Of a stretch of DNA of 64,000 nt, positions 527 to 41,127 are shown piece after piece; position 1 is the first letter of the stretch, and each line of letters opens with the position of its first letter. The stretch lies in the sequence record NC_028957.1. One strand, given 5' to 3'. The position numbers and the translations under genes are program-made. The notes below the pieces were generated by a model. It saw only the letters and a list, made by a program, of their open reading frames with translations, ran no database searches and had not been told where the DNA came from. This DNA comes from Escherichia phage vB_EcoM_VR26.

Positions 527-1120
527 TTACTTAAGTGAATTGATGTATTCTTCAATGTCAGCGGACGTGGTATCCACACCAACCTGTGGACCTTTGAAGG
601 TTTCAACACGCATCAGAGTGTCTTCAATATCAATCTTAGTCAATGCAGCGATTTCAACAACATCATCTGCAGTCGCAATACCCAGGGCAGATACCTTACG
701 AGTTTCGCGGATGTATTCCAGTTTAACAGCTAGTTCCTGACGAGAATCATCCAGCTCTTTAACTTTCAATTTAATTTCATTACGCATTTCAACATAATCA
801 TCTGCCTTCTTACGAAGTTGTTTAGCGGTGCGACGATACAGGAGACCCAGTTTAGCATGGACTTGGACATCAGCACCATCAGCAATCAGTTTACGGATTT
901 CACGCTCTTTTGAAGCAGCGAGCTGGTCTTTTTCATTCGCTAACTCGCGGATGCGTTTTTCTTCATTAACAGACTTAACGTGGGCAGTCTGGAGCTCAGT
1001 AATCTTGTCAATCAGGGTAGAAGCCGCTTTAGTATATTGGTCTTCAATAGACAGGTTTTGTGCCATTGCAGTACCCAGTTTGGAGCGGATGAATTCAACA
1101 AGTTTCTTTAAAGTATTCAT
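527..1120 (-). CDS. hypothetical protein, predicted coiled-coil rich
   Basis: 197-aa ORF with ATG start, preceded by an early-promoter stem-loop element; charged heptad-like sequence; no family recognised. Confidence 0.5.
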
Positions 1121-1156
1121 GGTATTTCCTTCAGTTGGTTAATGTTTTATTATCCA

Positions 1157-1192
1157 GGGAACATACTATCATGTTCCCGTTAAAGCGTACAC
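1157..1192 (-). promoter_or_regulatory. early-promoter stem-loop element (PeSL-like), sigma70-type
   Basis: Reverse strand reads GTGTAC, 18 nt, TAGTAT; inverted repeat GGGAACAT/ATGTTCCC encloses the -10; lies upstream of the 527..1120 gene. Confidence 0.5.
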
Positions 1193-1196
1193 TGAT

Positions 1197-1502
1197 TTAG
1201 ATTTTATTTTCCTGCACACCATAGTAAAGTTCATCAGACACGATATCCAGGATGCGGCGAACATATTCATCATGGTAACGACATTCAAAATCAAATTCAA
1301 CTGTAGTTTCTGGCTCACGGGAAAACTTAACTTGCACATTCAGGTGGTTAACAACTTTAGTAAAGCTGTCAGTAAAGAATTCTTTTGCTACTGCTTGTTG
1401 TACTTGTACTTTATACTTTGTATTGCGAATCATGTTTTCAGCTGATGCGAAATTACCAGTTTTATCAAAGTCAACAAGCGCCAGGTTGATGATGAATTTC
1501 AT
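1197..1502 (-). CDS. hypothetical protein
   Basis: 101-aa ORF, ATG start with GGAG SD, early-promoter element immediately upstream. Confidence 0.5.
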   Translation of the reverse strand: MKFIINLALVDFDKTGNFASAENMIRNTKYKVQVQQAVAKEFFTDSFTKVVNHLNVQVKFSREPETTVEFDFECRYHDEYVRRILDIVSDELYYGVQENKI

Positions 1503-1520
1503 TTTATTCTCCAGTTTTAT

Positions 1521-1575
1521 TTGGTAACTCAGTATGGAATCATTATGCCTTAAAGCAGGGGGCTTGTATACCCCC
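1521..1575 (-). promoter_or_regulatory. early-promoter stem-loop element (PeSL-like) with conserved leader
   Basis: Reverse strand reads GTATAC, 17-18 nt, CATAAT, then leader GATTCCATACTGAGTTACCAAA; GGGGG/CCCCC stem-loop over the -35 region. Confidence 0.5.
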
Positions 1576-1582
1576 TTTTGAA

Positions 1583-2026
1583 TTAAATTTCAAATTCTTT
1601 GCGGAAGTTGGAAGCATAAGATTGAACAGATGCTTTGTTGAATCCAAACTCACGCACAATCATATCAATAACAGCTCTGCGAGCAGCACCATTAGACATA
1701 TTAACAGTTTTGAACATATCATAGCATAAATCTTTGTTGCTCATACCGGAGCGTTTAGGTGCCTTACGCTCAGCTTTTGGTTCAGCTTTAGGAGTAGGTT
1801 TAACTTCTGGTTTAACCTGCCCATCATTCAGACCTTTAAAAATTTTACCTGCCAGAGTTGCCAGTTTAGCAGCTTCACCACGAGTGATACCAAATACTGC
1901 CGGGTTAAATGAAATACCTTCAGCTGTCAGACGTTTGAAGAACATACGCGCTGCGGATTGCGCTTCAGCTTCAGAAGAGTTGTTTAATGCCAGTTTAACG
2001 TACTTAACCAGTTTTGAAGTTTTCAT
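1583..2026 (-). CDS. hypothetical protein, paralog of the 2110..2535 product (shared C-terminal domain)
   Basis: ORF track starts at a GTG (2077) inside the promoter; in-frame ATG at 2026 follows the promoter and a weak SD; C-terminus ARRAVIDMIV...VQSYASNFRK matches the neighbouring gene. Confidence 0.5.
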   Translation of the reverse strand: MKTSKLVKYVKLALNNSSEAEAQSAARMFFKRLTAEGISFNPAVFGITRGEAAKLATLAGKIFKGLNDGQVKPEVKPTPKAEPKAERKAPKRSGMSNKDLCYDMFKTVNMSNGAARRAVIDMIVREFGFNKASVQSYASNFRKEFEI

Positions 2027-2047
2027 TTTATTATCCCGTTTGTTTAT

Positions 2048-2097
2048 TTGGTAACTCAGTATGGGATAATTATACACTATCCCACCTGGAAGTAAAA
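2048..2097 (-). promoter_or_regulatory. early-promoter stem-loop element (PeSL-like)
   Basis: Reverse strand reads TTTTAC, 17 nt, TATAAT; inverted repeat GGGATA/TATCCC encloses the -10; same leader CCATACTGAGTTACCAAA as the other copies. Confidence 0.5.
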
Positions 2098-2109
2098 CAC
2101 TTTTCTCAA

Positions 2110-2535
2110 TTATTTTTGAGCTTTGCGGAAGTTGGAAGCATAAGACTGAACAACAGTCTTTTTGATATCATGGGTAGTAACCAGGACATCAATCAGAGCG
2201 CGGCGAGCGGCATTATCATTCATATCAATTTCTGCAAATGCCTGGAAGCAAATGTCACGGGCGTTACCAGATTTGGACTGGATTTTTTCTTCTTTAACTT
2301 CTTCAATTGGGAATTCAATCATTTCAGCTTGGATTAATTCAATGATGGATTCTTTTGACTGTTTGGTGTTTACCTTCAGTTCAGAATTAAGGGACTTGGC
2401 GATGGCAACAATCTGGGTTGAAGTCAGATGGATAAGTGCATCTTCACGAATGCAGATTTCACATACTTCGTCAGCAACCATTTTGTTAGTGATGCGGGTA
2501 ACAGAGAATGCAGAGGTCAGGGTCAGAAAGTTCAT
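2110..2535 (-). CDS. hypothetical protein, paralog of the 1583..2026 product
   Basis: 141-aa ORF, ATG with GGAG SD; C-terminus ARRALIDVLV...VQSYASNFRK shared with the adjacent gene. Confidence 0.5.
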   Translation of the reverse strand: MNFLTLTSAFSVTRITNKMVADEVCEICIREDALIHLTSTQIVAIAKSLNSELKVNTKQSKESIIELIQAEMIEFPIEEVKEEKIQSKSGNARDICFQAFAEIDMNDNAARRALIDVLVTTHDIKKTVVQSYASNFRKAQK

Positions 2536-2567
2536 TTTATTTCTCCAAAGTTTTTGTGATTCAGTGT

Positions 2568-2615
2568 GTAACTCAGTATGGAATCATTATGCACCCGGTC
2601 AATTCGGATGTACAC
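2568..2615 (-). promoter_or_regulatory. early-promoter element with conserved leader
   Basis: Reverse strand reads GTGTAC, 18 nt, CATAAT, then GATTCCATACTGAGTTAC; near-identical to the copies at 1521 and 41079. Confidence 0.5.
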
Positions 2616-2652
2616 TACTTTTTGAAGAAAATTTCAAATTTATTCGGGGTAT

Positions 2653-2680
2653 AAAAAAGCCCCAACCTTTCGGGAGGGGC
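2653..2680 (-). terminator. rho-independent terminator after the T5orf172-domain gene
   Basis: Reverse strand reads AGCCCCTCCCGAAAGGTTGGGGCT followed by TTTTTT. Confidence 0.6.
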
Positions 2681-3339
2681 TATACCTTGTCGGGGTTCCA
2701 CCTGCAAGGCAAGTGTTCAAAATAGGGTGCGCCGTGAATACGACCACGTTGAACAAAGCCGTCATCTACTTTCATAGCAAGCAGGATGAAGTCCATAAGA
2801 CCCTGATTGATTGGTATTTCAAATTTCGTAGATTTAATATCTAATTTTTTAACTATGGAACTTATGTCATGAAAGAAAAACCATTCACCATTTATATGGT
2901 CCTGATTATAAATGCTGTGCATATATTTTTCAAGTTCTACTGCATCCTGGGAATATCTAAATGATACTATTTTAAAACTTTTAAAAGGTGAAAATGTATT
3001 TGCTGTTATAGCTCTAACATCGGGTTCTATACTTCTTCCTATTTTATAATAATTAGGATTTGTAGTGTCTACCATTATGTATACAAAAGCTTGTCGATAA
3101 CTTTTTTCTATGTCAAATTCATCTTTAAATTTCAAAAGATTTAGGGCAGCAGTCCTACAAAATACTCTCCATATCGACGAGCGTTTAGCTTCGGTCATCG
3201 AAAAGAATTTTTTCTTATCTATGATTTTAAGAAAAGCCACCTTTTCAATTAGTTCTTGTGTTATTTCAAAATTACCATGGTATATTAATCCAGCTTTTAT
3301 AGCCAAATTAATTTGGTCCCAGTCTACATCACTTCTCAT
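2680..3339 (-). CDS. T5orf172-type GIY-YIG domain protein
   Basis: 219 aa; C-terminal half carries FVYIMVD...YYKIGRS ... ELEKYMHS...HINGEWFFF, which matches the T5orf172/GIY-YIG pattern as I recall it; N-terminal ~90 aa unassigned. Confidence 0.55.
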   Translation of the reverse strand: MRSDVDWDQINLAIKAGLIYHGNFEITQELIEKVAFLKIIDKKKFFSMTEAKRSSIWRVFCRTAALNLLKFKDEFDIEKSYRQAFVYIMVDTTNPNYYKIGRSIEPDVRAITANTFSPFKSFKIVSFRYSQDAVELEKYMHSIYNQDHINGEWFFFHDISSIVKKLDIKSTKFEIPINQGLMDFILLAMKVDDGFVQRGRIHGAPYFEHLPCRWNPDKV

Positions 3340-3358
3340 AATATTATTCTCATTAATT

Positions 3359-3435
3359 TGGTCGGGGTGAAAGGATTCTAACCTTTAACCTGCGGTTTAG
3401 AGGACCGCTACTCTATACAATTGAGTTACACCCCG
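3359..3435 (-). tRNA. tRNA-Arg (anticodon UCU)
   Basis: Reverse complement folds as a cloverleaf: acceptor CGGGGTG/CACCCCG, anticodon stem GCGGT/ACCGC with loop CCTCTAA, T-stem AAAGG/CCTTT, encoded CCA. Confidence 0.8.
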
Positions 3436-3439
3436 TGTT

Positions 3440-3514
3440 TGGTGGCCCTTGCTGGTTTCGATCCAGCTACCTATCAGTTATGAGCTGACAGCTCTCCCAT
3501 TGAGCTAAAGGGCC
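3440..3514 (-). tRNA. tRNA with anticodon CAU (Met, or Ile2-type AUA reader by analogy with T4 tRNA-Ile)
   Basis: Reverse complement GGCCCTTTAGCTCAATGGGAGAGCTGTCAGCTCATAACTGATAGG...AAGGGCCACCA; 7-bp acceptor, anticodon loop CTCATAA, encoded CCA. Confidence 0.8.
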
Positions 3515-41078: not shown

Positions 41079-41127
41079 GGTAACTCAGTATGAAATCATT
41101 ATGTCTTATCTTAATCGGGTTGTAAAC
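41079..41127 (-). promoter_or_regulatory. early-promoter element with conserved leader
   Basis: Reverse strand reads GTTTAC, 18 nt, CATAAT, then GATTTCATACTGAGTTACCAAA. Confidence 0.55.

Follow-up and report, generated by a model that had tools for sequence, protein, structure and literature searches.

The question raised by positions 1583–2535 of a 64,000-nucleotide stretch of Escherichia phage vB_EcoM_VR26 (NC_028957.1), referred to here as the window, is why two adjacent small genes should encode proteins that begin differently and end alike. The two open reading frames (ORFs), ORF1 and ORF2 (Table 1), were taken in a preliminary description of this DNA for copies of a duplicated host-takeover factor with diversified N-termini, each behind its own early promoter. 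Both are real minus-strand genes whose products match PHROG families over the full length, and BLASTP aligns the C-terminal parts of the two products only, with 31 of 73 residues identical (42%; E=2e-17). The C-terminal similarity reported earlier is significant, and the motif quoted for it, NGAARRA.ID...VQSYASNFRK, is correct, reading NGAARRAVID...VQSYASNFRK in ORF1 and NDNAARRALID...VQSYASNFRK in ORF2. A shared C-terminal domain of about 50–55 residues, called the C-domain below, is confirmed as real and statistically secure. Judged from the predicted models, it represents a new and very small domain family whose type is familiar: a three-helix, helix-turn-helix (HTH)-like head carried by small, probably early proteins in a conserved two-gene module. 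The explanation that we tentatively favour is that ORF1 and ORF2 are early modular DNA-binding proteins with one common reading head.

Each of the two products matches the other's PHROG family, and in addition phrog_17275 (71 residues), through its C-terminal part only, and 24 of 24 C-domains of the family match the same three PHROG families (phrog_18416, phrog_9997, and phrog_17275), which are without known function. The profile search of the shared domain, named in the preliminary description as a way to check it, gave these PHROG matches, and the scans of full proteins and domains against Pfam, NCBIfam, and PADLOC returned nothing at or near curated thresholds. Word-indexed searches recovered 19 relatives of ORF2 and five of ORF1, none with a Pfam domain, and a third word-indexed profile search added two new proteins only. 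Of 1.84 billion cluster representatives searched exhaustively with the C-domain profile (HMMER), only 13 were genuine members, and no third copy of the C-domain besides ORF1 and ORF2 was found by tblastn in the window. The family is very small, new, and phage-restricted, occurring in phage records and short metagenomic contigs. Models built by AlphaFold2 (AF2) with family alignments reached a mean predicted local distance difference test score (pLDDT) of 81.8 for ORF2 and 76.0 for ORF1, with about 90 for the three C-terminal helices of ORF1 and low confidence in the linker of ORF2.

The most conserved part of the family is helix 3 (V-Q-S-Y-A-S-N-F/Y-R-K). Among the 24 C-domains, helix 1 has one invariant Cys and one invariant Phe, V-Q-S-Y never varies in helix 3, and the A, S, N, F/Y, R, and K that follow are near-invariant. 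When the C-domain profile was searched against all PDB sequences, the best non-artefactual match was the ATBF1 homeodomain (2da3_A; E=0.013), with helix 3 in register (krvVQSYaSNyRka against KRVVQVWFQNTRAR), and a second homeodomain, that of Lhx4, stood in the same short list. A nominally stronger match to the TAL effector 3ugm (E=2e-11) was rejected as an artefact, the sum of 23 sub-threshold repeat matches, and the long repeat proteins P0037–P0041 in the representative search were rejected as artefacts of the same kind. An hhalign comparison with 15 homeodomain sequences gave the same register (P=0.0027; probability 11%), a score reached by one of 300 column shuffles. The predicted model agrees with the homeodomain plan of a three-helix fold of approximately 60 residues with an HTH. 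With V set at homeodomain position 45 from helical periodicity and the 2da3_A alignment, Q, S, S, N, R, and K would fall at positions 46, 47, 50, 51, 53, and 54 on the side that faces solvent and DNA, and V, Y, A, and F/Y at positions 45, 48, 49, and 52 on the core side.

Compared with the homeodomains of Engrailed, Oct-1 (POU-HD), MATalpha2, and ATBF1 (2da3), the C-domain has the same number of helices with similar lengths, and V-Q-S-Y-A-S-N-F-R-K agrees with V-Q-V-W-F-Q-N-T-R-A at the aromatic residue 48, Asn51, and Arg53; in helix 1, C...F stands where homeodomains have L16...F20. The phage family differs in having Ala rather than Phe at position 49, four more residues between helix 1 and the helix 3 aromatic, a lower net charge, no conserved basic N-terminal arm, and an occurrence in phages only. 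Set against the signature W48-F49-x-N51-x-R53, the family's Y-A-S-N-[FY]-R has an invariant Y and an R in most members, with M or K in three. A K/R precedes helix 1 in all members at variable positions, the only common one lying three residues before the invariant Cys. Of the 24 members, 22 have a basic C-domain, with an isoelectric point (pI) of about 8.6–9.8; the other two have values of 6.8 and 7.9. We conclude that the modelled C-domain is homeodomain-like in its fold and helix 3 pattern and that membership in the homeodomain family is not established; the proteins closest to it in fold and sequence are DNA-binding domains, aligned in register at the predicted recognition helix. The resemblance may be convergent. 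Of the BEN domain (Drosophila Bsg25A, 4x0g; BEND6; BANP), only about half of the 108 residues are covered, at an identity of 4–13%, and the C-domain has no Pfam BEN match.

The N-terminal halves were described from the start as different, and this is borne out: they share no similarity, and their predicted folds differ, being all-helical in ORF1 and composed of three strands plus helices in ORF2. They are two unrelated modules rather than diverged copies of one ancestor, and the idea of diversified N-termini is not supported in that form. The N-termini of ORF1-like proteins weakly resemble DUF2786 (Pfam PF10979), with three members aligning in register (E 0.024–0.037; 14.4–15.0 bits) such that LALNNSSEGEAxxAARMFFxKL covers profile positions 3–34; the scores lie under the gathering score of 23.9 bits, and the resemblance may serve as a lead rather than as membership in a family that itself has no known function. 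The RNA polymerase inhibitor Gp2 of phage T7 appeared as a match to the ORF1 N-terminal profile, was not significant (E=0.37), and was rejected; the Gp2 fold contains strands, unlike the all-helical module predicted here. The linker of ORF1 carries a net charge of +4. In EAWsc9 (L001 3483..3950), it is eight residues longer with extra AEPK units, which indicates slippage in a low-complexity tether, and in the window no tandem repeats were found in it at the detection threshold. The N-terminal module of ORF2 contains a helix-extended-helix motif predicted to be of SAP/Rho-N type, and a search of its profile against PDB gave nothing significant.

ORF1 and ORF2 represent two of the four architectures in which the C-domain occurs. 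Type A proteins (like ORF1) consist of an N-terminus with LALNNSSEGEA..AARMFF, a low-complexity linker, and the C-domain, with a variant in P0028 and P0032; type B proteins (like ORF2) start with LTSAFSV..., followed by QLVAIAKSMNSELKVNTKQSKESI, an acidic linker, and the C-domain; and in P0025, P0026, P0034, and SP18gp274, the C-domain stands alone in 69–74 amino acids (aa). The window itself shows 94–97% identity over 1100..3400 to Gaprivervirus T4-like coliphages (VR7, SP18, EAWsc9, and others) by megablast against phage records, and belongs to Gaprivervirus, VR7/SP18 group. By tblastn against phage genomes, the domain was found in Gapriverviruses, the Morganella phages MP1 and Rgz1, a Providencia phage, the Acinetobacter phages ZZ1, Henu6, and 133, and the Erwinia phage RF1. 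Type B and type A genes are neighbours on the same strand in the window, on contigs L008, L009, and L014 (the last a T4-like contig that also carries Nudix and lysozyme genes), in RF1 with an HNH gene between them, in MP1 in the opposite order and separated by one gene, and in two 45.6 kb contigs (L012 10001..11266 and L013 2661..3926). In MP1, other annotators placed promoters before both paralogues. The 45.6 kb contigs have E217/Pa193-type structural genes and are not T4-like, which suggests that the pair was passed horizontally from one phage group to another, unrelated one; there the pair is isolated and transcribed opposite to all flanking genes, with a 44 aa ORF between B and A and a promoter-like site and a terminator for each gene. 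The type B gene without type A is found in the Acinetobacter phages and VR7.

A third paralogue, which has nothing but the C-domain (71 aa; SP18gp274, VR7ORF277c, phrog_17275), lies outside the window at 3501..3716 of L011 (SP18), between gene 52 and motA, ends two nucleotides (nt) before the motA start, and is present in all Gapriverviruses examined. A type A relative, P0033 (198 aa, with an insert of ~50 residues), occurs without type B and is flanked by mrh and a Mod-type ADP-ribosyltransferase gene (L010 1178..2959), which puts the family among classical early host-modifying genes. The products of motA, mrh, and modA of T4 act on the transcription machinery.

The earlier notion of a duplicated factor is supported in part. 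The two proteins are paralogous in their C-domains; the pair, recurring in unrelated phages, is old and moves as a unit, and does not stem from a recent local duplication. The C-domain identity matrix shows no clean grouping by N-terminal type, and the C-domain of the type B protein in the window shares 65% identity with that of the type A variant on L008, which suggests that modules have to some extent been exchanged. The 30 nt encoding VQSYASNFRK (1598..1627 and 2122..2151) differ by one base between ORF1 and ORF2, nine of ten codons being identical, and in four other genomes the codon identity between the paralogues in this block ranges from 4/9 to 6/8. Given these lower values, the case for concerted evolution of the two genes, or for gene conversion, is not convincing, and the near-identity in the window may reflect chance or a short gene-conversion tract.

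The function that we tentatively propose starts from helix 3. The conservation of its exposed face points to a conserved ligand, for which DNA is the most economical candidate, and a conserved protein would fit too. The common head would be a homeodomain-like HTH of three helices and about 50 residues whose helix 3 contacts nucleic acid with its polar face (Q, S, S, N, R, K), the likeliest partner being double-stranded DNA. ORF1, ORF2, and the domain-only paralogue beside motA would all go to the same target, and the effect at the target would be set by each N-terminal module. In ORF1, the basic helical module and the Lys/Pro/Ala-rich tether would suit non-specific DNA coating or bridging, and in ORF2, the acidic strand/helix module with its SAP/Rho-N-type motif would suit a second nucleic-acid or protein contact. 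We infer DNA binding, early timing, and an action on the host nucleoid or transcription. Besides the helix 3 match and the basic charge, this proposal is supported by the autonomy of the C-domain, which occurs by itself in small proteins, by the recurrence of B and A as neighbours, by the promoters annotated in MP1, and by the relatives beside motA and between mrh and the Mod-type gene. Among T4-type phages, the closest known functional parallel is T4 MotB, a small early product described as non-essential, fitness-improving, and a non-specific DNA binder that co-purifies with H-NS (PMC7827196). The activity of MotB is demonstrated, ORF1 and ORF2 would have a role of this kind, and comparison of MotB with the two proteins found no sequence or fold relation.

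Several observations weigh against this proposal. Profile searches with 14 members gave no match to a homeodomain or any other HTH family in Pfam at E up to 10, and the sequence link to homeodomains is weak, at the PDB and hhalign values given above. The residue equivalent to Asn51 is N in 20 of the 24 members and D, D, M, and S in the other four, the net charge of the C-domain (+2 to +6) is below that of typical homeodomains, and the invariant cysteine of helix 1 has no explanation. ORF2 is acidic outside the C-domain and acidic overall. VR7 has no ORF1 and the Acinetobacter phages have type B only, which indicates that A and B are not obligate partners. The literature searched yields no toxicity, binding, or expression data for the family. 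A putative host-takeover role would draw its support from context only, namely the early-type promoter-like sites and the relatives next to motA or between mrh and modA.

The main alternative, though a rather unlikely one, is that the C-domain is a protein-binding module. It would bring both proteins and the domain-only paralogue to a single conserved partner from host or phage, such as an RNA polymerase component or a nucleoid protein, where the differing N-termini would exert different effects, or it would pair A with B as a dimerisation module. Helix 3 hardly varies among the Escherichia, Morganella, Erwinia, and Acinetobacter phages, which fits a protein target as well as DNA; the modest positive charge of the C-domain, the acidity of ORF2, the position of relatives next to motA, mrh, and modA, and the neighbourhood of A and B genes in at least six lineages are all compatible with docking or pairing. 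However, the closest matches in fold and sequence are DNA-binding domains whose recognition helix aligns in register, and the existence of the C-domain alone and of type B without type A implies that heterodimerisation cannot be the sole role.

It is less probable still, and in our view unlikely, that the two proteins are sequence-specific regulators of the phage's own genes, forming an accessory and possibly autoregulatory pair rather than a host-directed one. The predicted HTH-type fold would suit such regulators, the isolated opposite-strand unit of the 45.6 kb RF1-like phages, with its own promoter and terminator for each gene, is the usual layout of regulatory genes, and the domain-only copy is apparently co-transcribed with motA. 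Against this, no shared candidate operator was seen, and the 45.6 kb phage has no copy of the promoter-proximal motif CCATACTGAGTTAC, described below, upstream of its pair; close relatives can do without the genes, as the lack of ORF1 in VR7 indicates; and the same recognition helix in unrelated phages would need a common operator in unrelated genomes.

Quite improbable is a role as accessory cargo of a variable region, for counter-defence or exclusion, in which the helical domain would be a mere stable scaffold without reading DNA: the pair does sit in a hyperplastic region with cassette-type turnover, next to mobile nuclease-type genes (the T5orf172 gene at 2680..3339, the HNH gene within the RF1 pair, and a Seg-like gene near the ZZ1 copy), and an Acb2/Tad1-type anti-defence gene lies on the T4-like contig L014, but PADLOC and the other family libraries gave no match, and a scaffold leaves the conservation of the exposed face of helix 3, the most conserved part, unexplained. 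The remotest idea, and a very improbable one, is that the C-domain is a true phage-borne relative of the eukaryotic homeodomain rather than a three-helix bundle that arose by convergence. It would have kept the aromatic-x-x-Asn-x-Arg helix, extended the loop between helices 1 and 2, and come to read DNA for both proteins of a mobile, early two-gene module aimed at a site or structure that gamma-proteobacterial hosts have in common.

The early timing assumed in our favoured explanation of DNA-binding proteins depends on the promoters. A T4-type early-promoter-like site does stand before each gene, as the preliminary description held; the term early is putative for both, being drawn from consensus matches and conservation in the sequence alone. 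In an alignment of the sequences that precede ORF2, ORF1, and the next gene (1197..1502) in the window, SP18, and VR7, both hexamers (-35 and -10) were conserved. Both promoter-like sites are conserved in SP18, and in VR7 the ORF2 site is kept before ORF147c and an ORF1-type site stands before another gene (VR7ORF146c). The ORF1 site lies 13 nt past the ORF2 stop codon, with no terminator between ORF2 and ORF1. A longer, GTG-initiated form of ORF1 (to 2077) was rejected, its start lying inside the predicted promoter hexamers and homologues giving it no support.

A block of about 25 nt, CATAATGATTCCATACTGAGTTAC, made up of the -10 hexamer and the putative first transcribed bases, is common to all three promoters. 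Its 14 nt motif core directly after the -10 hexamer has three copies within 1.1 kb at the locus and one more far away in the window (Table 1), and two further loose matches have no promoter. In the form (C/T)CATACTGAGTTAC, the motif follows the -10 hexamer at four early-type promoters, a placement which suggests that it probably represents the first transcribed bases; it could serve RNA stability or provide homology for recombination.

The hairpin and promoter-like site after ORF1 form a stem-loop-plus-early-promoter (PeSL)-type arrangement. The pattern in the window matches the PeSL cassette-exchange mechanism of T4-type phages, in reports that do not describe PeSLs for the Gaprivervirus group (PMC2839356; PMC4122927). 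Early sigma-70-type promoter-like sites stand beside stem-loops repeatedly between small variable genes, and genes are swapped between close relatives with junctions in a repeated motif. In VR7, which lacks ORF1, the junction (L003 3548..3660 compared with window 1503..2109) keeps the ORF1 promoter through CCATACTGAGTTACCAAATAAA and then continues into a different gene, and this difference fits a PeSL-type cassette exchange with the junction in shared sequence. A swap at the shared motif would account for the presence of ORF1 in SP18-like genomes and its absence from VR7, and for the mosaic nature of the window, which has ORF1 in common with SP18 and the T5orf172-type gene in common with VR7. 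The arrangement resembles PeSLs in having an early-type promoter before each gene and a GC-rich stem-loop before two of three promoters; it differs in that the ORF1 promoter has no preceding hairpin and that the longest shared block is the -10 hexamer with the putative first transcribed bases, not the stem-loop.

If the inference of DNA binding holds, it would give the first functional handle, nucleic-acid binding via a defined helix, on three PHROG families of unknown function that occur in therapeutic-type T4-like coliphages. A small module of two genes, one that has crossed between unrelated groups of phages, would be defined as well, and the pair offers a compact natural test of one binding head reused with different effector modules. 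A connection to early transcription control is suggested by the domain-only copy beside motA. For the history of the homeodomain fold, the similar helix is a curiosity, with weak evidence for common descent, and the current view of phage biology would be unchanged unless the proteins act on the host.

Table 1. Coordinates in the window of the two genes, their predicted modules, and the neighbouring signals and genes.
Feature	Position	Strand	Properties	Evidence or setting
ORF1, type A protein	1583..2026	minus	147 aa; pI 10.0; net charge +13; starts MKTSKL	phrog_18416, 9e-93, full length
ORF1 N-terminal helical module	1835..2026	minus	residues 1–64; predicted helices 3–15, 19–36, 42–45, 49–58	AF2 model
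ORF1 linker	1751..1834	minus	residues 65–92; Lys/Pro/Ala/Glu-rich; GLNDGQVKPEVKPTPKAEPKAERKAPKR	pLDDT <50 at residues 65–88 (predicted disordered)
ORF1 shared C-domain	1586..1750	minus	residues 93–147; predicted helices 97–105, 113–127, 131–145	
ORF2, type B protein	2110..2535	minus	141 aa; pI 5.7; net charge -2	phrog_9997, 1.5e-71, full length
ORF2 N-terminal module	2308..2535	minus	residues 1–76; three predicted strands and helices 31–36, 39–49, 61–74; helix-extended-helix motif QIVAIAKSLNSELKVNTKQSKESIIELI	
ORF2 shared C-domain	2113..2271	minus	residues 89–141; predicted helices 92–100, 108–122, 126–140	
Early-promoter-like site of ORF1	2069..2096	minus	TTTACT-16-TATAAT	10/12 consensus matches
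Early-promoter-like site of ORF2	2586..2614	minus	TGTACA-17-CATAAT	9/12 consensus matches
Motif CCATACTGAGTTAC, ORF1 copy	2051..2064	minus		directly after -10 hexamer
Motif CCATACTGAGTTAC, ORF2 copy	2568..2581	minus		
Motif CCATACTGAGTTAC, next-gene copy	1524..1537	minus		
Motif CCATACTGAGTTAC, distant copy	41080..41093	minus		after GTTTAC-N17-CATAAT; before ribosome-binding site and ATG
GC-rich hairpin and overlapping promoter-like site	1542..1576	minus	hairpin 1557..1576; promoter-like site 1570..1542	after ORF1; promoter-like site of next gene (1197..1502)
Terminator-like hairpin and T run	2660..2675	minus		between T5orf172-type gene and ORF2 promoter
Next gene after ORF1	1197..1502	minus	101 aa	
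e.6 homologue	527..1120	minus		
T5orf172/MUG113-type gene	2680..3339	minus	219 aa	Pfam 4e-8 and 1e-5; between tRNA genes and ORF2
tRNA-Arg(TCT)	3359..3435	minus		
tRNA-Met(CAT)	3440..3514	minus		

Public annotation has hitherto said little about the two genes, whose products are hypothetical in all records except for two automated labels in EAWsc9. There, the ORF1 orthologue is labelled 'H15 domain', which reflects nothing but the Lys/Pro/Ala-rich linker, and the ORF2 orthologue 'rho-N domain', which may fit the predicted helix-extended-helix motif; neither label was adopted. A label 'RNA polymerase sigma factor' in phage DCP80 was likewise discarded, belonging to the neighbouring gene on the opposite strand. 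No support was found for antisense ORFs over the ORF1/ORF2 region. The two genes are kept in about 30 Gaprivervirus genomes and lie within a variable stretch from the lysozyme gene e (e.6) to a tRNA cluster, with every gene of the locus on the minus strand. The MUG113/T5orf172 domain of the gene upstream of ORF2 is GIY-YIG-related and typical of mobile nuclease-like genes; this gene is present in VR7, and other genes take its place in SP18 and EAWsc9. The identity of the tRNA with the CAT anticodon is uncertain, as it is annotated as tRNA-Ile2 in one related record.

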